A stretch of 35,535 nucleotides of DNA from a virus (taxonomy: Duplodnaviria; Heunggongvirae; Uroviricota; Caudoviricetes), in IMG/VR virus record IMGVR_UViG_2872152978_000002. The stretch is one strand, 5' to 3'. Position numbers and translations under genes: made by a program. Each line of letters opens with the position of its first letter. Within the stretch, counting starts at the first letter, position 1. Below, in pieces: positions 5,686 through 28,748 of this stretch. The notes below the pieces were generated by a model. The model had not been told where the DNA came from. It worked only from the letters and a program-made list of their open reading frames with translations, and made no database searches.

Positions 5686-6876
5686 TTAATTGCTGTTAAC
5701 CGAGGTGACCAGATTTGCCAGGTATTTATCGGTGATACGCTGGCGCAGGGTCAGGTTTTCAAGAGGAGGCACCGGGGTATAGTCGTAGTCGATATACAGT
5801 TTTCCGGCCTTGAGGGTTTCCGCATCGTTGGATTCTTCGCTAAACCAGCAGGTCGCATCCACGATATAGCCGTTTGTTTTCAGCTCACGGAATTTGGCAT
5901 TGATGCCGTCAACGATGTCACGAATCAGCGTTGCGGTGATGGGCTTGTCCACCGCCCACATGTGCGCCTCAGCCATCGTGTCGGCCAGTACCTGTGCGGT
6001 GCGGGTGTAGTTTTCAAAGAGGAACAGCGGGTCATCAGAGCAGGTACGGTTACCCCAGAAGCGGAAACCGTCACGGCGAATCAGTGTTGTGACGCCTGAC
6101 TCGTTAAGCAGGTCAGCATCGGTGCCGGACTCCTGCAAATCCCAGAATACAGATGCGCTGATGCCGGTAACACCGTTCACCCCGACGTTGGACAGCGTTT
6201 TATGCCAGCCCTGCTCCTGGTCGATTTTGGCACGCAGACCCAGCGCACGGGCGGTAGCATACGCGGTGGCGGTGGTACTGGTGACCGTATCCCATGCGAG
6301 GAAATCCGGCCAGATGACCATCAGCTCACGCTGGCTGAAATTCTGGCGGTAAGCTTTCACCTCGGAAATGGTTTTACAGCCCCATGCGCTGATATACCCG
6401 AAAGCGCGCAACTTCTGACAGACTGATGCCAGTGCAACAGCCACCTCTTTGGTATCCAGTCCCGGTACGCCGAGAATACGCGGTTTAACACCGGTTACCG
6501 ACTCCGCCGCCAGCAGGGCTTTCAGTCCGGTGTACTGACCGTTTTCGTCGGTGGTGCCGATGATATTGGAAACGGTCTGCGCGAGTTTCGTTTCTTCGTC
6601 GTCGCCGGTGCCGTCTTCCACGCGCACAACAACGGTGACCGGTTTTGACTGGTCAGCGATGGCCTGCAACGATGCCGCCAGCGTGCCTTTTTTACCGGCC
6701 TTTGCAATTGCGCTCTGCACATTGGTAATCAGCACCGGTTTATTGAGGGGGAAGGTTTCCGCATCCGCATCGCTGGCCGTGCAGACCATGCCGACAATGG
6801 CGGTGGATACGGTTGAAATGACGCGGGTGCCGTCGTTAATCTCCAGCACCTGCACGCCGTGATGATAGTCACTCAT
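5686..6876 (-). CDS. FI: Contractile tail sheath protein FI, 396 aa
   Basis: 396-aa ORF, P2 gpFI length and position, first gene of the FI-FII-E-T-U-D block. Confidence 0.9.
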   Translation of the reverse strand: MSDYHHGVQVLEINDGTRVISTVSTAIVGMVCTASDADAETFPLNKPVLITNVQSAIAKAGKKGTLAASLQAIADQSKPVTVVVRVEDGTGDDEETKLAQTVSNIIGTTDENGQYTGLKALLAAESVTGVKPRILGVPGLDTKEVAVALASVCQKLRAFGYISAWGCKTISEVKAYRQNFSQRELMVIWPDFLAWDTVTSTTATAYATARALGLRAKIDQEQGWHKTLSNVGVNGVTGISASVFWDLQESGTDADLLNESGVTTLIRRDGFRFWGNRTCSDDPLFLFENYTRTAQVLADTMAEAHMWAVDKPITATLIRDIVDGINAKFRELKTNGYIVDATCWFSEESNDAETLKAGKLYIDYDYTPVPPLENLTLRQRITDKYLANLVTSVNSN

Positions 6877-6971
6877 CCGTTTAACTCCGTGGTTAATGGG
6901 TGCAACTATTTTCTGTTGTACAGAGCATGAGACGCTATTTGATCTGTCTGGTCAGTGGATGAAACAACAGA

Positions 6972-6999
6972 TACAGAAAAGGCGGGCAATTCGCCCGCC
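6972..6999 (-). terminator. Hairpin with T-run (minus strand) upstream of FI, left edge of the cargo island
   Basis: GGCGGGC-AATTC-GCCCGCC stem-loop at 6981..6999, followed on the minus strand by TTTTCTGT. Probably the backbone terminator that separates the tail-fibre operon region from the FI late promoter. Confidence 0.4.
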
Positions 7000-7063
7000 T
7001 GTCCTAGTTTGTACTCACTCATTTTCCGACTGACAATTTACATAGCCAAAACGCTATCAAATC

Positions 7064-7096
7064 TGACAGTCTGCTTTGAGCGAAAAGCAGACTGTC
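7064..7096. repeat. Perfect 14-bp-stem inverted repeat upstream of the HNH gene
   Basis: TGACAGTCTGCTTT-GAGCG-AAAGCAGACTGTCA; no clear T-run on either side, so it could be an operator or RNA structure rather than a terminator. A degenerate copy lies at 8077..8115. Confidence 0.7.
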
Positions 7097-7212
7097 ACGC
7101 GTTGAAGTTAATTGTATTACTTAGATAAACACTATCATTTTCCTGACGTTAAGTTGTATCTTTGATAGGATTAAAAAACGTATAGATAGCTTATGCTACT
7201 GAGGGAATAAAA

Positions 7213-8022
7213 ATGACGAAAATTAGTGAACGATGGAAGCACAATGGCATTACTGAAGGTTATTGCAATATTTGTGGGAAATATGGCTTGCTCACAAAAG
7301 ATCATGTTCCTCCAAAGTGCGCCATAACCTTAGGCCCTGTTTTGCAGAAAACAGTTAGCGAATTTTTTGGTATTCAGGAACCAGTTAAACCATTAAATGC
7401 TAAAAATGGCTCTTATTTCAGAACCATTTGCAGCCACTGTAACAATAAGGTATTAGGTGGGCTCGATGTTGCAATTGAAAATGTAACAAAGTCCTTTAAA
7501 GAACAGTTAAGTCGATATATGAATGGTATGAATGTATATCCATTCATTAGAATACCTTTTGATAGCATATCTTTCACTAAGGCTATGATTGGGCACGTGC
7601 TATCAGCAACTTCAGTTGAAGATTGTAAAAAAGAACCCGTAGATAGCCCCTTCTATACACCTTTAAAGGATTATGTTTTGGGTAAAAATTCAAGTTTTGA
7701 GGAAACTCATGATATTTACTACTGGTTTTACCCACACAGAATGCACATATCCGCTCAAAGTGTAGCATTTATGAACGAAGGACATGTGGCATTTATTTGT
7801 GCTTTACATTTTTTTCCTATCGGTTTTATTATCACAATGAAAAATGAAGGAACATACCCTGCCCACTCTACAAAATTAGAACTTGAAGATAAATTCCTTA
7901 CATTTAATATGACCTCTATAAATTATGAGTATACGACATTTCCATTTGTAAATCTTAAGGGAAACCAAATGTATGCGATAAGCAACGGTCATACTTGTGT
8001 GAGTTATCCAATAATTAAGTGA
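7213..8022 (+). CDS. HNH-motif nuclease-like protein with an unknown C-terminal domain, 269 aa
   Basis: N-terminus carries C-x2-C (CNIC), DHVPPK, a conserved Asn and C-x2-C-N-x-K (CSHCNNK), the spacing typical of zinc-bound HNH endonucleases. GAGGGA Shine-Dalgarno before the ATG. About 35% GC, unlike the P2 backbone. C-terminal ~190 aa has no motif I recognise. Confidence 0.75.
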   Translation: MTKISERWKHNGITEGYCNICGKYGLLTKDHVPPKCAITLGPVLQKTVSEFFGIQEPVKPLNAKNGSYFRTICSHCNNKVLGGLDVAIENVTKSFKEQLSRYMNGMNVYPFIRIPFDSISFTKAMIGHVLSATSVEDCKKEPVDSPFYTPLKDYVLGKNSSFEETHDIYYWFYPHRMHISAQSVAFMNEGHVAFICALHFFPIGFIITMKNEGTYPAHSTKLELEDKFLTFNMTSINYEYTTFPFVNLKGNQMYAISNGHTCVSYPIIK

Positions 8023-8162
8023 CGGCTAAATCATACAATCTACGCATGTTCACTTTCTACATATACCATCTATAATGTCCGCTGTTGGCACAAAGCAGAC
8101 GCCCACTCTCACGCGAATGCTTTGCCCTTGACTTGCCAACAACCGTATCGCTTGCTCCGCAA

Positions 8163-9440
8163 CTATGGTTTTTTATTAGAATCTTCGCCACTAAATAAAT
8201 TATAATAAATTGATTTTATTAGATATCTGTCAGAATCTATATGGTCAGCACGAGTAGCATGCTCTAATGTTTCAAATGCTAGGGTTTGTGCGGCTTCAGC
8301 AAAAATTCCAGGCCAACCCTTACTCAGCATCGACAGTCCTTTAAGGACCCTTATCTGAATTTCCCTCATACTGGCACCATCGCGCGCAACAGGTGAGAAA
8401 AAGTCTTCAAGTAGATCGTTATTCTGAAGTGGTGCAACATGTACAGAAGGATATTTCACTTCTATTTCATCAGATTTATTCTGCGCGTAAGCGGAAAGTA
8501 TACGTACACCTCTGCCAATGACATCAATGGCGGTTCCAGGATCGTTCACTGCGGGGGAAAGGGCTCGGCAGGCTATTTCGGCCATGACGCTAAGACAAAA
8601 TCGGGGGTCCTGAGCAAATGAACGTACATCCGAGACAATAATCGTCTCAAGTAAATCGGTGCTGATTGATGACTCCTGGCCCTGACTCAGGTACAAAACT
8701 GGCGTGGACGGATGTATGAAACTGCCCGGCTGCGCCACGAGGTATACATGACGGGGATCATTGGTCAGCAGCTTGCTGAGTTTCACCATATCAACATATT
8801 CAACATAGCCAATCTTTTTCGGATAAACTGCAACCGTTCCTTTCGGCTGTTCATTGTTCTCAAGCCATGGATATCCGCCGAGACAGGGATTTCTTGCTCT
8901 CGCAATAAATGTTTCGATGGCCGCCTGTTCTACTTTTGCCGTTGTCTCACCAACCCTCCCCAGAGAGGTCAAATGCTGTATCCAGCGAAGCAATGTGATG
9001 AGGATTAAGGCAATGACAACCAGTGTTACAATGAATAAAATGACTCTCCCCCTTTCTCCATAAGCTCCCATATTGAGGGCAATAATCCCTACCAGACTGA
9101 AGAGAAAAGAACCGATGAAGGTGGCCAGTACATTTTGTGTGGTGACGTCTTCAACAACTAAACGAGTAGCTCTGGGAGTCACATTAGTAGTGGCTGAACC
9201 GTAGGCTGTGACCATGATGCTCAGCGAAAATGTGGTCACTGCCAGCATACTCGATGCCAGTATGTTCAGAATGTTATCGACTGCTTCCGCACCAACCTTC
9301 ACGGAAACCGACTCAGGTATCATTGATTTAAAAAGAATTGATAAAAGGGCCGTTATTATTGCGACAATTGCGAATAACGTTGCCCTGAACCATAGTTTTT
9401 TAAATGTCTGCTTCAGCATCCATTTCCAGCGTGAAATCAT
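8163..9440 (-). CDS. Membrane protein with four N-terminal TM helices and a ~250-aa soluble domain (DUF2254-like, from memory)
   Basis: Four hydrophobic segments in the first ~160 aa. Start placed at the Met preceded by GAGGGA (the track ORF starts 15 nt upstream, inside the terminator T-run). Family assignment is from recollection only. Confidence 0.55.
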   Translation of the reverse strand: MISRWKWMLKQTFKKLWFRATLFAIVAIITALLSILFKSMIPESVSVKVGAEAVDNILNILASSMLAVTTFSLSIMVTAYGSATTNVTPRATRLVVEDVTTQNVLATFIGSFLFSLVGIIALNMGAYGERGRVILFIVTLVVIALILITLLRWIQHLTSLGRVGETTAKVEQAAIETFIARARNPCLGGYPWLENNEQPKGTVAVYPKKIGYVEYVDMVKLSKLLTNDPRHVYLVAQPGSFIHPSTPVLYLSQGQESSISTDLLETIIVSDVRSFAQDPRFCLSVMAEIACRALSPAVNDPGTAIDVIGRGVRILSAYAQNKSDEIEVKYPSVHVAPLQNNDLLEDFFSPVARDGASMREIQIRVLKGLSMLSKGWPGIFAEAAQTLAFETLEHATRADHIDSDRYLIKSIYYNLFSGEDSNKKP

Positions 9441-9461
9441 TCTGCATTCCCTCATATTGCA

Positions 9462-9492
9462 GCCGGGATAAATAAATGCCGCCTCTGTGGCG
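9462..9492 (-). terminator. Intrinsic terminator between the BCCT transporter gene and the downstream membrane protein gene
   Basis: ATGCCGCC-TCTGT-GGCGGCAT hairpin followed on the minus strand by TTTATTTATC, 12 nt after the transporter stop codon. Confidence 0.55.
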
Positions 9493-9503
9493 GCATGTTG
9501 CTG

Positions 9504-11507
9504 TTAACGAACCAGATGCAGGAAGTGCAGGTGTTTTTCGTACTGGTCCAGTATGTCATTAATCAGCTGTTCCTGATTCCAGCCCATTACATCATAATTT
9601 TGGCCGCCCTCTTTGAGATAGACTTCAGCGCGATAATATCGATGTTGTTCACTCTGCTGCTCATCATTATCCAGCGCAGCGAGCGCGAAGGTCGGTGAGT
9701 TATACCCGCGAAGCCTCACTTCATATATATAATTCAGCTCGTTGCCCAAATCGACTTCAAGGCGAATACGATCCTCGGCGGCGTCACTGATGTGGCTTAT
9801 CGTTCCCTGCTTGTTAAGTTCCTCCTGAACCAGCGTCATGGCGGGTTGGATAATGTCGTCCATAAAACGTTTCACAAGAGAGCGCTTCGGCAAATACGCG
9901 ATATTGCGTAACCTTCTCTGCCAGGGAATTGGGTTACGTGCAGCCGTAGGAGCAATAGTCGCCATGCTAAGGCTTTCACGCTTGGTCAAATCCCGACGCA
10001 GGGCTTTTAACAGTCCGTATATGGATATTAATAAGATAACTGAGAAGGGCAATGCACTCGCTATCGTTACGGTTTGCAACGCACTCAGCCCCCCTGCGAT
10101 CAGCAGGGCAATAGCAACAACGCCCATGAGCAATGCCCAGAAAATTCGCTGCCAGACGGGCGTGTTTGCCACCCCACCTGATGCCAGAGTATCCACAACC
10201 ATTGCCCCCGAATCAGCAGACGTTACAAAGAAGACGATGACCATCGCCATTGCAATGAATGACAGCACGGAAGAGAACGGGAAATGCTCCAGGAAATTAA
10301 ACAGGGCAAGCGCAACATCCTGCTGAACGGTATTGGCGAGGTCAGTGGCGCCCTGGTTCATGATGAGATAGATGGCGCTGTTTCCAAACACCGTCATCCA
10401 CATGAGCGTAAAGCCGGCGGGAACAAACAACACGCCAGTCACGAACTCACGAATTGTCCTGCCGCGGGAAACGCGTGCAATGAACATACCTACAAACGGC
10501 GACCATGAAAGCCACCATCCCCAGTATAATAATGTCCAGCCCCCCAGCCAGTTGCTCGACTTGGGTTCATACGCGTAAAGGTTGAACGTTTTACTCACCA
10601 GTTCCGACAGATAACCACCCGTATTTTCCACAAATGACTTCAGCAGAAGCACAGTGGGACCCAGGCACAAGACCAGCGCCAGGAGCAACACCGCCAGGCC
10701 CAGATTAAGCTCAGACAGGATGCGTATTCCCTTGTCCAGGCCGGACACCACCGAAATCGTCGCTAACCCCGTGATGACCACGATCAAAATGACCTGTACC
10801 GTTTCATTGATGGGCACGCCGAAAAGATGGTTCAAACCGGCATTCACCTGCAATACACCGTAACCCAGCGATGTTGCAACGCCAAAGACAGTGCCTATCA
10901 CGGCGAAGATATCAACCGCGTGGCCTATAGGCCCGTAAATGCGATCGCCGATAATGGGATAGAGCGCAGAACGCAGCGTTAAAGGCAGACCGTGACGGTA
11001 ACTGAAAAAGGCCAGAATCAGCGCCACGATGGCATAAATTGCCCATGCGTGCAGACCCCAGTGGAAGAACGTCAGGCGCATGGCTTCCTTCGCTGCCGCA
11101 ACGGTCTCTGGAGTGCCGACAGGTGGCGAAAGATAATGCATCACAGGTTCGGCAACGCCAAAGAACATCAGGCCGATCCCCATCCCTGCCGAAAAAAGCA
11201 TCGCGAACCAGGAGTGGTAGCTGAAATCAGGCTGCGCATGGTCTGGGCCCAGCTTTATATCACCGTAACGTGAGAGTCCAAGGAACGTGACGCTCAGTAA
11301 AATCAGGGCCACAGCAAGTATGTAGAACCAGCTGGCATTCGTGAAGATTTGTTGCTGAAGTAGTTTAAAATTTTTGTCGGCGACATCCGGGAATACGGCG
11401 GCAAAGGCGACAAGAAGGAAAATTAGCAAAGCAGATGTAAAGAATACCGCTTTGTTAACCTGGCTTGTAGACTTCTTTGGGGTTGTATCATTTTCACTCA
11501 TAATCAT
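9504..11507 (-). CDS. BCCT-family transporter, BetT-like (choline/betaine type), 667 aa
   Basis: BCCT signature GWTLLYWGWWLSWSPFVGMFIARVSRGRTIREF; overall collinear with E. coli BetT as I recall it, including the C-terminal ...DILDQYEKHLHFLHL tail. Confidence 0.85.
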   Translation of the reverse strand: MIMSENDTTPKKSTSQVNKAVFFTSALLIFLLVAFAAVFPDVADKNFKLLQQQIFTNASWFYILAVALILLSVTFLGLSRYGDIKLGPDHAQPDFSYHSWFAMLFSAGMGIGLMFFGVAEPVMHYLSPPVGTPETVAAAKEAMRLTFFHWGLHAWAIYAIVALILAFFSYRHGLPLTLRSALYPIIGDRIYGPIGHAVDIFAVIGTVFGVATSLGYGVLQVNAGLNHLFGVPINETVQVILIVVITGLATISVVSGLDKGIRILSELNLGLAVLLLALVLCLGPTVLLLKSFVENTGGYLSELVSKTFNLYAYEPKSSNWLGGWTLLYWGWWLSWSPFVGMFIARVSRGRTIREFVTGVLFVPAGFTLMWMTVFGNSAIYLIMNQGATDLANTVQQDVALALFNFLEHFPFSSVLSFIAMAMVIVFFVTSADSGAMVVDTLASGGVANTPVWQRIFWALLMGVVAIALLIAGGLSALQTVTIASALPFSVILLISIYGLLKALRRDLTKRESLSMATIAPTAARNPIPWQRRLRNIAYLPKRSLVKRFMDDIIQPAMTLVQEELNKQGTISHISDAAEDRIRLEVDLGNELNYIYEVRLRGYNSPTFALAALDNDEQQSEQHRYYRAEVYLKEGGQNYDVMGWNQEQLINDILDQYEKHLHFLHLVR

Positions 11508-11822
11508 TTATTCCATTAATTAAATCCGCACTGGATAGAAGGTACTACCTCTCACAGAGTAGCAAAGTTCAACTGGCTATGCGGGATTAATCGGAATGCA
11601 TGGTGGAATGAGTGCCGATACAAATCATCCTATATTCTAAGGAGTTTTAAGTTACTCAGCCTGCCAATTACTGGGGCATTTAATTTGTATGATCTGTATC
11701 AAAGCTGGGATATAAGTTAAGTGAAGTATATTAGGCACGAATTACCAGCGTCTGCTCTTGGCACAGAGCGGACTGTCAGATTAGACTTTACTCTGTGCTA
11801 TAGGTATGTCAGCTCATACAAC

Positions 11823-12350
11823 TTATTGCGGCATTTCCGGCCATTCAGGATTTGCAGGATCCACACGACTGACCAGAACGCTGTAGCGTTCCCATGCTTC
11901 CAGTCGGCTGCGCTCCTCATCTGTTGCCATATTCAGCCTGACAGCGCGCTCCAGCGGCAAAATCACGGATTCAGCTTCGGAAAGTAAAGTTGCCTTTTGT
12001 GATTCTGCCAGTTGCTGCTGTTCGTCTGCCGTATAAATCCGCTTAATCACGGCACCATCCTTAAACATCCATTTACCTGAGTCATCAGCACGTCGGTTGG
12101 CGGTAATATCAGGAACCTCGACAACGCTAAAACCTTCAGGGTTAAGCGTTGAAGCATCTCTGGTGATGCCGACAATTATATTATTCTCGTCGTAAACAAT
12201 CTTTATCGTGTCTTCCTGAAAATTACTTACTTCCTCATACCAGTTTTTTCCGTCTTCAGACCATAACCAGATAACATCAAAATTTTTTGTCAGTTGATAT
12301 TGGGCAACAGTTTTGGGATTACCCGCAGTAATATTTTTTAAATGCTGCAT
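11823..12350 (-). CDS. G: Tail fibre assembly protein G, 175 aa
   Basis: 175-aa ORF directly downstream of H; P2 gpG length and position. Confidence 0.88.
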
Positions 12351-16238: not shown

Positions 16239-16863
16239 AGAGGACTCCCGGTTGTGCCGCCGCTGTCGCCGGGGTGTTTATGGGTATGCAGTACCTTCCC
16301 GTTTGATGAAAGTTCACCGCCGGTGTGTTCAATGTTGCCGCGCATCGTCCCGCCCTTCTGCACTTCCAGCGTGCCGGTAATCAGCTTGTTGGTGCAGACC
16401 ACCTCCGGTGTGTCCAGGGTGACGCGGGTTGATGCTTTCACCATGACCACCGGCACCGTGGCAGTAACAGAATCAGAAGCCGTCACGCTGGCCGTTTTAA
16501 TTCCGCTTACCGTGAGTGCACTGGTTTCAGGTTCATACTCAATCACCGCCCCGTCAGGGAAACGGATATGCAGGGCATCCGCCGACGCCGACGGCGCGGG
16601 TTATCGCCGGAATAAATCCCCGGCAGAACGAACGCCGTGTCGAGTTCACCGCCCACGGCCAGAATCAGCACCTGTTCCCCCACGGAAGGTGCCCACCATG
16701 TGCGCGAACGACCGGCGCGATGGGTCAGCCACTGAAGCCAGTCGGTGCACATGCCGCCGGTCTGCACACGGCAGCGACCGGCATTAAGGTCGGTTTCGAC
16801 GATAATGCCAGTGCGAATCATATTGCGTATAAAGCGAAGAATTTCATTGTATTGTGCATTCAT
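16235..16863 (-). pseudogene. V: Baseplate spike gene V, split by a frameshift (or sequencing error)
   Basis: N-terminal part (MNAQYNEILRFIRNMIRTGIIVETDLNAGRCRVQTGG...SGDN) and C-terminal part (...ADALHIRFPDGAVIEYEPETSALTVSG...GSPL) lie in different frames. They join if 2 nt are removed or 1 added near 16596..16600 in a GCGCCG-rich run; the joined length is about that of P2 gpV (211 aa). Confidence 0.7.
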
Positions 16864-16949
16864 TCGATAATAATGATTCTGTACAATCTCGAAGTAAATC
16901 ACACCACGATTTCTGGTGCACAGAACAACAAGGGACAACAAAATCCATT

Positions 16950-18023
16950 ATGAGTACTTACTTTTTCTCGTCAGAAACAATGAAAGAATTGTTCAAAGAT
17001 TATCTGGTCTTTTTGAACACGCTGACTCCCGGCACAAACTTTGAATCAAGCAGAAACAAAATAATTGCTCAAGCAATAAACTTCATTTCCGAAAACCCTG
17101 AAGATTGGGACAAAAAATCCCAGTACAACATTGCTATGATTGGCGACACCTTTAAAAGTTTCTTAAGAGAAAAGGGAGAAGATAACAACAGCATCAACCT
17201 TATATTCACTTGCTTTTTTAGATTTATCATTGAACCAAGCATTCTCTCTCCGGAAATAGAGTCTCACTTTTCACCACTAAGAACCATCAAGGATTTTGCT
17301 CTGTATAACTATAATGAATTCGATGAGCGGAGCAGAGCACAGATAGACTTTTCTCTTAGAGAACTGCCATTAGCAATGGTTAAAGAAGTTTTAAGCTCCA
17401 GCAATGTTGACACATATAAAAAATACATTGATAGTTTAAACGAAGGGCGTCAATTTTTCGAAAAGTGCGACTCCTTCTTAAAGGAGCAACATGCCAAAAT
17501 AGAGTCAATCAAAGAGTCATTAAAAGGGTATGAGGTCGCATTTAATTTTGTTGGATTGTTTGAAGGCTTTAATTCACTTGGCAAAAAGAAAGAAAGTGAA
17601 ATCATGCTATCAAGAATAATTCTTATCATCTTGGCTATAATCATTCCCTCCCCGCTGATATACTATGGAATGCATAAATTACCAGCTCTCGAAACGACAA
17701 ATGCTGCCACATATTTTATGTCAGCACTACCTTTTGCATCAGTTACATTGATTTTCATGTATTACTTTAGAGTTGTACTGCTAAATCATATATCGTTACG
17801 AACTCAGATTATGCAAATAGAACTCAGAAAGAGCCTTTGTCAGTTCATTCAGAGTTATAGCGACTATTCCTCAGAGATAAGGAAAAACAATCCGGAAGCG
17901 CTTTCAAAATTCGAAGACGTAGTATTTTCAAACATCATGCTATCCGATGATAAGATACCATCTACATTTGATGGCATTGAGCAAATAGCATCGTTAATCA
18001 ATTCATTAAAAAATGGAAAGTAA
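16950..18023 (+). CDS. Hypothetical 2-TM membrane protein (~357 aa) at the P2 orf30 moron position
   Basis: AT-rich ORF divergent from V. Mostly helical N-terminal ~240 aa, then two hydrophobic helices (IILIILAIIIPSPLIYYG and YFMSALPFASVTLIFMYYFRVVLL) and a ~90-aa tail. Followed by an intrinsic terminator. Start codon uncertain (weak Shine-Dalgarno). Confidence 0.6.
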   Translation: MSTYFFSSETMKELFKDYLVFLNTLTPGTNFESSRNKIIAQAINFISENPEDWDKKSQYNIAMIGDTFKSFLREKGEDNNSINLIFTCFFRFIIEPSILSPEIESHFSPLRTIKDFALYNYNEFDERSRAQIDFSLRELPLAMVKEVLSSSNVDTYKKYIDSLNEGRQFFEKCDSFLKEQHAKIESIKESLKGYEVAFNFVGLFEGFNSLGKKKESEIMLSRIILIILAIIIPSPLIYYGMHKLPALETTNAATYFMSALPFASVTLIFMYYFRVVLLNHISLRTQIMQIELRKSLCQFIQSYSDYSSEIRKNNPEALSKFEDVVFSNIMLSDDKIPSTFDGIEQIASLINSLKNGK

Positions 18024-18027
18024 TGAT

Positions 18028-18058
18028 AAAAGGCCAATAACTGGCCTTTTATTTATTA
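18028..18058 (+). terminator. Intrinsic terminator after the orf30-position cargo gene
   Basis: AAAAGGCCA-ATAAC-TGGCCTTTT hairpin followed by ATTTATT, 5 nt after the stop codon. Confidence 0.65.
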
Positions 18059-27931: not shown

Positions 27932-28645
27932 TTACACCAAACCCGGGGAATAAGGGCCTCGTGCTAATTCAGGATTAGTCCACATTAAGCAAACTGGGTT
28001 ATCTGAAGTTATAAATGACCCTTGCCCATCAGATATGGTCATAAGTGACCAGTTGCGTTGATGCAACAACTTGGTGATAACAGGTACACATTTCATTTCC
28101 ATATCTATCATGAACTCTCTGATTACATTGATTTCGAAATTATCCCCATCCACAAAATTTTTAATTTTTTCGTAAGCGAGATCATATGGCAAAGACTCAC
28201 CCATTTCTTTCTCATAAGCTAATTTGCAATCGTCCCAACGCTCAGCCGAACTAACTGAGGATTTCATGATAAACTTTGCTATTTGTTTCAATGGAGATGA
28301 TAAATGTTCTCGCTGAGCAGGCGTACGTATTGCCAATAAGGAAATAAACTCCAGAATAACATCTTTGGTTTCGCCTGAAAACTCGCCCCCCTCCTCAAGT
28401 TTTCTTAAATGAGTAGCGACACTGCCTTCAAACTCTGCAAGAGAACTCTCGAGATAGTTTGGGTCAACTCCATCCAATTCTAATCGGTTGAAATCTCTAA
28501 CCCCCCCGACATTGCGAGTATTACTCTCAAAGGTTTTGCGCTCCTTTAAATCTATTACAGTTAATTTTGATTTTTTCCCCCCATTACTTGTAAACCCTTT
28601 CAAATAACATTGGGATAAAAAATGATGATGCCTTGCAACACTCAT
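27932..28645 (-). CDS. DUF4238-like protein at the P2 old/tin moron position, probably truncated by a frameshift
   Basis: Starts MSVARHHHFLSQCYLKGF and contains SDNPV, which I recall as DUF4238 hallmarks. GGAG Shine-Dalgarno 6 nt before the chosen ATG. AT-rich. The reading frame of the downstream 66-aa ORF (27717..27917) is open from 27967, so one indel in the CCCCGGG run would give a ~305-aa product. Confidence 0.65.
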   Translation of the reverse strand: MSVARHHHFLSQCYLKGFTSNGGKKSKLTVIDLKERKTFESNTRNVGGVRDFNRLELDGVDPNYLESSLAEFEGSVATHLRKLEEGGEFSGETKDVILEFISLLAIRTPAQREHLSSPLKQIAKFIMKSSVSSAERWDDCKLAYEKEMGESLPYDLAYEKIKNFVDGDNFEINVIREFMIDMEMKCVPVITKLLHQRNWSLMTISDGQGSFITSDNPVCLMWTNPELARGPYSPGLV

Positions 28646-28748
28646 ACTCAGCTCCGTTATGGCTATAATCGCATAAATAATAAGCACTTATATTGCAATC
28701 ATCTAGTTAAATACACAATATTTATGACTCCGAAATTTCATTAAATCA

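Follow-up and report, generated by a model that had tools for sequence, protein, structure and literature searches.

Genes for defence against phages have a major reservoir in P2-like prophages. This report concerns short arm-spacer-arm sites that bound the cargo genes of a P2-like prophage contained in virus record IMGVR_UViG_2872152978_000002, the whole stretch of 35,535 nt being referred to as the window. In the Cre, Flp, Xer and lambda Int systems, strand exchange takes place at the spacer edges, and the spacers of the two partners must be identical. The dif site has the consensus GGTGCGCATAA-TGTATA-TTATGTTAAAT. The attC site of integrons is a structure-conserved imperfect palindrome with R'', L'', L' and R' boxes (R' being GTTRRRY), which is recognised as folded single-stranded DNA.

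The Z-region of P2 is bounded by inverted repeats (Nilsson, Karlsson & Haggard-Ljungquist 2004, Mol Biol Evol 21:1; GenBank AJ512676-AJ512685) that are the same element as the one described here. The 'proviral Z-region' records AJ512683 and AJ512676 annotate a 113-bp 'left' and a 91-bp 'right inverted repeat', which end exactly at the inner arms of the R site (left repeat) and the L site (right repeat) defined below. Positions 6900-7092 of the window match AJ512683 at 92.2% over the 'right inverted repeat'; the stretch 7002-7092 (FI-side pad, L spacer and inner arm) is this repeat, and the G-side pad is the 'left' one of AJ512683. The Z-region is located by its cargo, which is flanked by G and FI and is non-essential in P2-like phages, and the cargo of the window has this location. 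Since the records of 2004 annotate the bracketing repeats, both the repeats and the idea of site-specific exchange are about twenty years old. The records annotate long repeats, however, and not 9-6-9 core sites with two spacer types, and the window adds an internal third site to the scheme, giving a two-cassette array.

The recent hotspot literature cites Nilsson et al. 2004 only for the variable loci and treats the exchange mechanism as open. A survey of September 2026 (PMC13586616) still names no established mechanism by which such cargo passes between P2 hotspots and plasmids, with transposons absent, homologous recombination without flanking homology, and illegitimate recombination as the remaining suggestion. 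The site sequences, the protein accessions and a cassette system of this kind were absent from the searchable literature, outside which the text of Nilsson et al. 2004 lies. Accordingly, the two-spacer anatomy, the junction evidence and the widespread small recombinase presented below appear to be new to the accessible literature. From comparison of the sequences, the three sites of the window (A, B and C) are probably tyrosine-recombinase core sites that bound swappable cassettes, with a small recombinase as the likely enzyme.

Three sites in the slot between FI and G

The window is a P2-like prophage of Escherichia coli, and the region is identical to that of strain S10. The genes are ordered ogr-D-U-T-E-FII-FI, cargo, G-H-I-J, according to the RefSeq annotation of the identical prophage and the open reading frames (ORFs) of the window. 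The slot lies between FI (tail sheath, 5686-6876, minus strand) and G (tail-fibre assembly, 11823-12350, minus strand), the same position as that of fun(Z) in P2. Its sites and segments are as follows.

6980..7000, minus strand: intrinsic terminator with a 9-bp stem, GGCGGGCGAATTGCCCGCC, followed by TTTTCT (-21.3 kcal/mol, z = -4), upstream of the FI promoter region
7002..7077, plus strand: FI-side pad, phage backbone, ending in the L outer arm GTCTGCTTT; conserved in 40+ related prophages, at a constant distance from the ATG of FI
7069..7092, plus strand: L-type site A, GTCTGCTTT-GAGCGA-AAAGCAGAC (9-6-9), found by the strict model; the extended perfect palindrome covers 7064-7097
7078..8091, plus strand: cassette 1, from L spacer to R spacer, with an HNH-like ORF; alone in loci L011 and L002, and module S3 on plasmids L003 and L085
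8077..8100, plus strand: R-type site B, GTCCGCTGT-TGGCAC-AAAGCAGAC, found by the strict model; left arm of cassette 1 and right arm of cassette 2
8086..11764, plus strand: cassette 2, between two R-type spacers (direct R sites B and C), with the DUF2254 and BCCT genes
11750..11773, plus strand: R-type site C, GTCTGCTCT-TGGCAC-AGAGCGGAC; left arm from cassette 2, right arm from the phage backbone
11765..11822, plus strand: G-side pad, backbone, with the outer arm AGAGCGGAC and TGTCAGATTAG..., up to the G stop; kept next to G in 45+ loci

The first-pass annotation had described the HNH-like gene as bracketed by a perfect hairpin and a degenerate copy of it. The arms of the hairpin at A, TGACAGTCTGCTTT (7064-7077) and AAAGCAGACTGTCA (7084-7097), are indeed 100% complementary over 14 bp, but the loop comprises 6 nt (GAGCGA, 7078-7083) and not 5; the CGCG said to follow, reaching 7101, is present. 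About 1e-3 perfect 14-bp inverted repeats with a loop of 3-10 nt are expected in the window, and the RNA fold of the hairpin was calculated at -25.5 kcal/mol (z = -5.5). The perfect pairing of A is due to the inner arm of the cassette itself, AAAGCAGAC-TGTCA, which is unchanged on plasmids, where it faces another partner arm. Elsewhere, only phage-side arms showed the TGTCA extension of this inner arm.

The downstream sequence, GTCCGCTGTTGGCACAAAGCAGACGCCCACTCTCACGCG, is present at 8077-8115 and holds a genuine site, although one with the R-type spacer TGGCAC and not a decayed copy of A. Over 24 nt, the identity of B to A was 75% in direct and 83% in inverted orientation, on par with chance repeat families in the same 1.4 kb, and B folds into no hairpin (z = -0.97). 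Because A and B as a simple repeat pair are no better than chance, family-level evidence was used instead; by this site model B is genuine, matching 13 of 14 arm-core positions with an exact R-type spacer, and it is recognisable only against the site family. The bracket of two copies was, moreover, incomplete, as site C (11750-11773) had been overlooked. This third site, between the transporter gene and G, was found by a mismatch search with the arm of A. B and C are direct R sites with TTGGCACA in common, and C is the true partner of B.

A strict site model, in which the spacer must match exactly and no fewer than 12 of the 14 arm-core positions (GTCCGCT / AGCGGAC) must agree, returned exactly three sites in the 35.5 kb (7069, 8077 and 11750), all on the plus strand and all in the slot, against an expectation of 1.2e-4. 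A looser model gave 0.3 matches per shuffle. Both cassette left ends (7084-7101 and 8092-8115) read AAAGCAGAC...TCACGCG with a length difference of 6 nt. The TCACGCG block is thus common to both ends, as had been noted, but lacks family-level support, and it may reflect shared ancestry or chance.

Conservation of the sites in related slots

The slots of 80 IMG/VR loci encoding close FI relatives were read in the orientation of the window. Both pad halves were present in 44 of the 80 loci, a serine invertase abutted FI in 16, the slot was empty in 7, and 13 fell into other classes, nine of them with more distant FI proteins. In the 44 loci with both halves, AATCTGACA-GTCTGCTTT-GAGCGA was located at an offset of 183-194 from the FI ATG and TGGCAC-AGAGCGGAC-TGTCAGATTAGG adjoined G, with 31 unrelated cargo clusters between the L and R sites. 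The offset of the L site itself from this ATG was constant at 192-194. R and L sites also occur around fun(Z) in P2 itself. The pads are about 90-110 bp long and about 90-95% conserved, and the G-side pad is an inverted repeat of the FI-side pad.

The consensus was GTCTGCTTT GAGCGA GAAGCGGAC att for L (45 distinct contexts) and GTCCGCTCC TGGCAC AGAGCGGAC tgtcagattagg for R (48 contexts), and the 9-6-9 anatomy with a GAGCGA or TGGCAC spacer was found in 93 distinct sites. The sites have the anatomy of tyrosine-recombinase core sites, in which two binding arms in inverted orientation enclose an asymmetric spacer of 6-8 bp (6 bp here). Conservation is as high in the cargo-side as in the phage-side arms and reaches about 12 nt (AAY-GTCCGCTYY at the right end, RRAGCGGAC-RTT at the left end).

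In all seven empty slots, the G stop lies directly against the GGCGGGC...GCCCGCC terminator, with no hairpin and neither site. Since this is the arrangement of the empty-slot relatives, the pads with the cargo (about 7002-11822) are an insertion relative to them; the terminator at 6980-7000 lies outside the sites and marks the pad edge. Relatives lacking the HNH-like gene, in which the first-pass annotation had proposed to look for the hairpin, carry both sites where other cargo is present and neither where the slot is empty. The suggestion of a duplicated insertion target failed on three counts: A and B differ in spacer, L and R flank 31 unrelated cargos, and the empty slots are without the hairpin. 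Target-site duplication was likewise rejected for A and B, which are of L-type and R-type, with no copy of either in the empty slots.

The window is an ordinary occupant of the P2-like slot, with a two-cassette array. Two-cassette slots split by an R site, a linker of 15-18 nt and an L site were found at loci L043, L048, L054, L056 and L071. Distinct R-linker-L junctions occur at 26 loci as a composite of 63-66 bp (e.g., L087 8584-8649, L086 269-334 and L048 slot 1048-1113). The 15-18-nt linker of the composite has a weak CTGA..GCTGAAG pattern, and its four arms loosely resemble a double-stranded attC.

Hybrid junctions within the spacers

The claim that the HNH-like gene forms a module separate from the transporter genes was borne out. 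In other P2-like prophages it stands alone between the same sites (L011, and a variant in L002/L066), and on plasmid pERB9a1 two other modules lie between it and DUF2254/BCCT. The layout of L and R sites and the breakpoints within the spacers identify the HNH-like gene as one cassette and the DUF2254-BCCT pair as a second.

Locus L011 carries the HNH-like cassette alone (98.9% identical over 1224 nt), together with A and the R site GTCCGCTGT-TGGCAC-AGAGCGGAC-TGTCAGAT. In the window, B has the left arm, flank and spacer of this R site and a right arm from the DUF2254/BCCT module, and C has the left arm of that module, the spacer and then the phage right arm. As far as the sequences indicate, this is the pattern expected if cassette 2 entered, or the block was exchanged, via a crossover within TGGCAC. 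Window positions 7077-11776 are also found as one block, 99.96% identical, on IncF plasmids, with the match running from the spacer of A to C; both cassettes may therefore have arrived together.

Plasmids L003 (NZ_CP020517) and L085 (pERB9a1) carry the same segments at about 99.7% identity, all on one strand and in another order, S0-S1-S2-S3-S4 in L003 and S0-S3-S2-S1-S4 in L085. S1 and S3 are thus swapped; S3 is the HNH-like cassette, movable on both plasmids with breakpoints in the spacers. The four sites of L003 are given below.

s1: GTCCGCTAA-GAGCGA-ATTGCAGAC
s2: GCCCGCTTT-TGGCAC-AGGGCTGCT
s3: GTCCCTTAT-GAGCGA-AAAGCAGAC
s4: GTCCGCTGT-TGGCAC-AAAGCAGAC

All four L085 junctions are exact hybrids of L003 halves (s1-left/s3-right, s4-left/s2-right, s3-left/s1-right and s2-left/s4-right), two joined within GAGCGA (L x L) and two within TGGCAC (R x R). 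The identity common to the recombined partners is only about 7 bases (GAGCGAA or TGGCACA). An independent case was provided by a cassette in a lambdoid prophage of E. coli 042 (L087, 6651-8607, next to the recombinase gene described below). This cassette matches the cargo in P2 slot L057 at 98.9%; the homology starts at GAGCGA and stops just past the R spacer, within TGGCACA. Every hybrid junction, that is, the four of L003/L085, the two of L087/L057, and B and C relative to L011, appears from the alignments to be L x L or R x R and joined within the spacer.

The HNH-like gene is present as a 94.7% variant in loci L002 and L066, and A is gone from them through a 67-bp gap between AAACRCTATCA repeats. 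In the window, these 11-bp direct repeats (7049-7059, AAACGCTATCA; 7127-7137, AAACACTATCA) surround the 67 bp holding hairpin A. That they are the target duplication of a 67-bp mini-element carrying A was considered and rejected, a deletion in the L002/L066 lineage being simpler because A is a standard L site elsewhere.

A small recombinase gene associated with the sites

Between s2 (R) and s3 (L), the plasmids encode a 200-aa protein (e.g., WP_001752951) in which Pfam recognises a Phage_integrase domain; the ATG of the gene is separated from the L site by about 40 nt. HxxR, H and Y residues of the protein align with the catalytic residues of XerD, and it contains little beyond the catalytic domain. 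It scored 53.6 bits against the NCBIfam XerA/integron-integrase model (cut-off 220) and matched the tyrosine-type DNA invertase (Fim-type) subfamilies weakly (E = 8e-6 and 1.6e-3), and no curated NCBIfam family was reached. The recombinase was matched in 864 of 5426 complete E. coli genomes (16%), at 90% identity or more in most, and the copies are mostly chromosomal.

The gene lies between R and L sites, with cassette arrays on both sides, on E. coli plasmids, on a Pantoea plasmid and in two of three sampled E. coli chromosomal contexts. The two are a lambdoid prophage and an island with dynamin-family genes; in the third (L088, an island near ptsG/ypjA) an R site follows the recombinase stop and the scan found no L site before the ATG. 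A copy 91% identical over 189 aa occupies a P2-like G-FI slot (L041, IMGVR_UViG_3300028958_000056, slot 731-1315), with a degenerate L-like site before the ATG and no R site after the stop. Among 80 recombinase loci sampled from one-genome-per-species contigs, 14 (13 Enterobacterales and one Pseudidiomarina) contained 43 strict sites against 0.004 expected, and 41 of the 43 were co-oriented relative to the gene.

The family comprises at least 8000 clusters at E <= 1e-10, with generic names throughout. Its members are spread over Gamma- and Betaproteobacteria; identity was 76-92% for those of Enterobacterales, Idiomarina and Pseudoalteromonas and 61-68% for those of Pseudomonas and Burkholderiales. 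A half-site, GTCCGCTYY-TGGCAC, lies just past the 3' end of the gene beside its own terminator hairpin; it is kept after the stop in Idiomarina, Providencia and marine contigs resembling integrative and conjugative elements (ICE-like contigs), and in the Pseudomonas and Burkholderiales relatives it is kept with the variant spacer TGGCCG. A loose motif scan for variant sites in the high-GC relatives was too noisy for counts.

Palindromic sites with the TGGCCG spacer were seen with relatives of 61-65% identity in Lysobacteraceae, Vreelandella, Pseudomonas and others (L123 12562, L125 16677, L126 8630, L138 15789 and L151 9928). One of these sites has changes in both arms (GACTGCTCT-TGGCCG-ATAGCAGTC), a hint that enzyme and site may co-evolve. 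On the chromosome of Idiomarina sp. X4 (L090, 8631-15534), the recombinase gene adjoins about 6.9 kb of DNA between an L and an R site. This cassette encodes an EptA-like phosphoethanolamine transferase, a PhoQ-like kinase with a response regulator, PAP2 and a diacylglycerol kinase, and is an mcr-like module. The marine metagenome and genome contigs L095-L097 are ICE-like, with genes for CobT/VWA, RadC and a Toprim primase; on them, the recombinase gene separates an arsenic-resistance block from a copper-resistance block. The recombinase gene may mark cargo-module boundaries on integrative elements.

Proposed exchange mechanism and alternative explanations

If the sites are core sites as proposed, inverted arms of about 9-12 bp (AAY-GTCCGCTYY / RRAGCGGAC-RTT) would surround a 6-bp crossover spacer, and the L (GAGCGA) and R (TGGCAC) spacers would be non-interchangeable. 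As a docking pad, a P2-like phage would offer one half of an L site next to FI and one half of an R site next to G, and each cargo would supply the complementary inner arms. Replicons would divide into L...R segments, the cassettes, and R...L segments, which could be an 18-nt linker, a recombinase module or a whole P2 genome. L x L and R x R recombination between a prophage and another replicon with the same sites would then swap or add whole cassettes. One L x L crossover would fuse the two replicons and an R x R crossover would resolve them with the cassettes exchanged, and one crossover of either kind, R x R or L x L, that involves a circular intermediate would add a cassette, as between B and C. 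The enzyme would most likely be the 200-aa, catalytic-domain-only tyrosine recombinase, which would bind and cut the sites, exchange strands in the spacer and be needed for the reaction; since the window has no such gene, it would act in trans. The wider proposal, that L and R are two heterospecific core sites of an uncharacterised natural cassette-exchange system run by the recombinase of about 200 aa, resembling integrons in its outcome and engineered dual-site cassette exchange in its mechanism, with the P2 slot as its recombinase-less docking pad, is tentative and on balance slightly doubtful.

A mechanism of this kind, if true, would explain the movement of cargo, including anti-phage defences, among P2-like phages, lambdoid prophages, plasmids, ICE-like elements and islands, and it names a directly testable candidate enzyme for the movement of hotspot cargo. 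The sites give base-pair-precise cassette boundaries for the G-FI hotspot, and L, R and R-linker-L together provide a simple signature for cassettes of unknown function in phages, plasmids and islands. Should the recombinase work as proposed, it would be a compact natural cassette-exchange tool.

Several points weigh against the core-site reading. The site model was defined after the data had been seen. Some slots are without one site (L002/L066 without L), some cassettes are R...R and not L...R, such as cassette 2 here, and the L site preceding the recombinase gene is degenerate in distant hosts. No recombinase of this kind is encoded in the window itself, and the pairing of recombinase and sites is a case of guilt by association. 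Exchange among P2-like phages only could equally be run by homologous recombination in the 90-110-bp pads.

Extending this last point, the pads may simply be conserved phage backbone between which RecA- or phage-mediated homologous or illegitimate recombination swaps cargo with no dedicated recombinase, the palindromes having another role or none. With about 90-95% conservation, the length of the pads suffices for homologous recombination between P2-like phages, and both mechanisms are named as candidates in the 2026 survey (PMC13586616). Against this, the plasmid and lambdoid exchanges have only the 24-bp sites in common, with junctions in about 7 bp of identity, the cargo-side arms are conserved across 31 unrelated cargos, and outside phages one recombinase gene is surrounded by a massive excess of co-oriented sites; we regard this explanation as unlikely. 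A role as folded single-strand hairpins, recognised by structure like integron attC or IS200/IS605 or triggering template switching in replication, would suit the great stability of A as a hairpin on either strand and the separation of cassettes by palindromic sites, as by attC. However, Watson-Crick pairs at mirrored arm positions equalled the independence expectation over the 93 distinct sites (at position 4, 47 observed and 49.7 expected), with arm-arm mutual information of at most 0.08 bit; the commonest L sites combine GTCTGCTTT with GGAGCGGAC, which are mismatched (T-G or C-A), and B is without a fold. The arms are conserved by sequence and not by pairing, the opposite of attC, and the GTTRRRY core of attC was not seen at the sites. 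The covariation test over the 93 sites being negative, a structure-selected hairpin was rejected, and the single-strand explanation as a whole is very unlikely.

The first-pass annotation had also offered a shared regulatory element or terminator, and the hairpins could in principle be transcription terminators, insulators or RNA-stability elements framing each moron, as they stand at gene boundaries and A could stall polymerase or protect a 3' end. No T-run follows A, B or C, however (flanks CGCGTT, GCCCAC and TGTCAG), the terminator scan called 6980-7000 (minus strand) and 9476-9496 and none of the three sites, and Rfam returned no family in the slot. Nor is pairing conserved, and the sites also occur as 66-bp R-linker-L composites and beside the recombinase gene in arrays. 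The terminator or RNA-element reading was rejected on the basis of fold, terminator scan and Rfam, and a role of this kind is highly improbable. Finally, the HNH-like protein could be a homing nuclease, with A and B as the duplicated or repaired target of its own insertion, given its CxxC...DH...CxxCN motif and the related palindromes that bracket the gene. The same sites nevertheless flank 31 cargos without an HNH-like gene, A and B differ in type, prophages of the L002/L066 type keep the gene without A, the empty slots have no target hairpin, and the HNH assignment itself is below threshold. Homing by the HNH-like protein was rejected because the sites are cargo-independent, and the comparative data appear to have essentially refuted it.

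Comparison with described recombination systems

The arrays resemble integrons in their promoter-poor cassettes, co-oriented arrays, palindromic separators and adjacent, divergently placed tyrosine recombinase gene, and in that cassettes are shuffled and passed among replicons. In contrast to integrons, the sites are conserved in sequence, without a GTTRRRY core, where attC is conserved in structure; two heterospecific sites (L and R) take the place of one attC per cassette; and the recombinase has 200 aa and no N-terminal domain, compared with about 320 aa for IntI. An integron attC/IntI-type identity was rejected on the sequence-conserved arms without covariation, the missing GTTRRRY and the score of 53.6 versus 220 bits.

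The pdif modules of Acinetobacter plasmids likewise lie between paired short arm-spacer(6)-arm sites in many plasmid contexts. However, these are 11-6-11 XerC/XerD sites served by the host Xer system, whereas a dedicated recombinase gene is present in the array here. The arm consensus GTCCGCTYY / RRAGCGGAC has no resemblance to the dif consensus given above, and a Xer/dif or pdif site was rejected. In engineered recombinase-mediated cassette exchange, heterospecific lox or FRT pairs provide the same logic of two incompatible spacers and a double crossover that leaves no vector sequence, but the enzyme is Cre or Flp; here, a natural counterpart with an enzyme of its own is inferred.

FimB/FimE-type recombinases are also about 200 aa long, consist of the catalytic domain only and gave the weak NCBIfam matches mentioned above. 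They invert one segment between 9-bp inverted repeats, whereas the sites here are co-oriented and the events are translocations or exchanges, and the similarity is marginal. The TnpI binding motif of the TnpI/IRS system of Tn4430 and Tn5401, ATGTCCRCTAAY, resembles AATGTCCGCTAA at several sites (e.g., L003 s1), which is a lead and not a test; this motif had no match in the searchable literature. TnpI differs in being the cointegrate resolvase of Bacillus transposons.

Cargo genes and other features of the window

The G+C content of the left end of the slot was 34-37%, compared with about 55-57% in the tail genes. The cargo genes are as follows.

7213..8022, plus strand: HNH-like ORF, 269 aa, WP_000161640; cargo with no profile match above threshold
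8163..9455, minus strand: cargo gene for a DUF2254 membrane protein (Pfam PF10011, E = 1.6e-92; RefSeq annotation)
9504..11507, minus strand: cargo gene for a BCCT-family (BetT-like) transporter, by RefSeq annotation in L001 and L085

The label 'HNH' given to the first of these is based solely on a CxxC...DH...CxxCN motif; the Pfam HNH and HNH_5 models remained below threshold (E = 0.02-0.29). HNH_5 gave E = 0.02 and 15.3 bits (cut-off 27.5) and HNH gave E = 0.13, each with the N-terminal 102 aa only. Searches of NCBIfam, PADLOC and PDB returned zero matches to the protein, and its PHROG family is one of unknown function. A palindromic hairpin resembling a terminator, ATGCCGCC...GGCGGCAT (9476-9496), separates the BCCT gene from the DUF2254 gene and was called on both strands.

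Two further regions of the window correspond to other P2 hotspots. A gene of the DUF4238 family (27932-28687, minus strand; Pfam E = 7e-33) has the portal-side genes on one side and gene A on the other, which is the position of the old/tin hotspot of P2; no L or R sites were found there. An ORF of 389 aa with no Pfam family (16854-18023, plus strand) is located on the strand opposite to that of the baseplate and tail genes, at the position of orf30 in P2. No L or R sites were found around it, and it is probably the cargo of the third P2 hotspot. It is followed by a terminator-like hairpin, AAAAGGCCAATAACTGGCCTTTTATTT, near 18024-18052.

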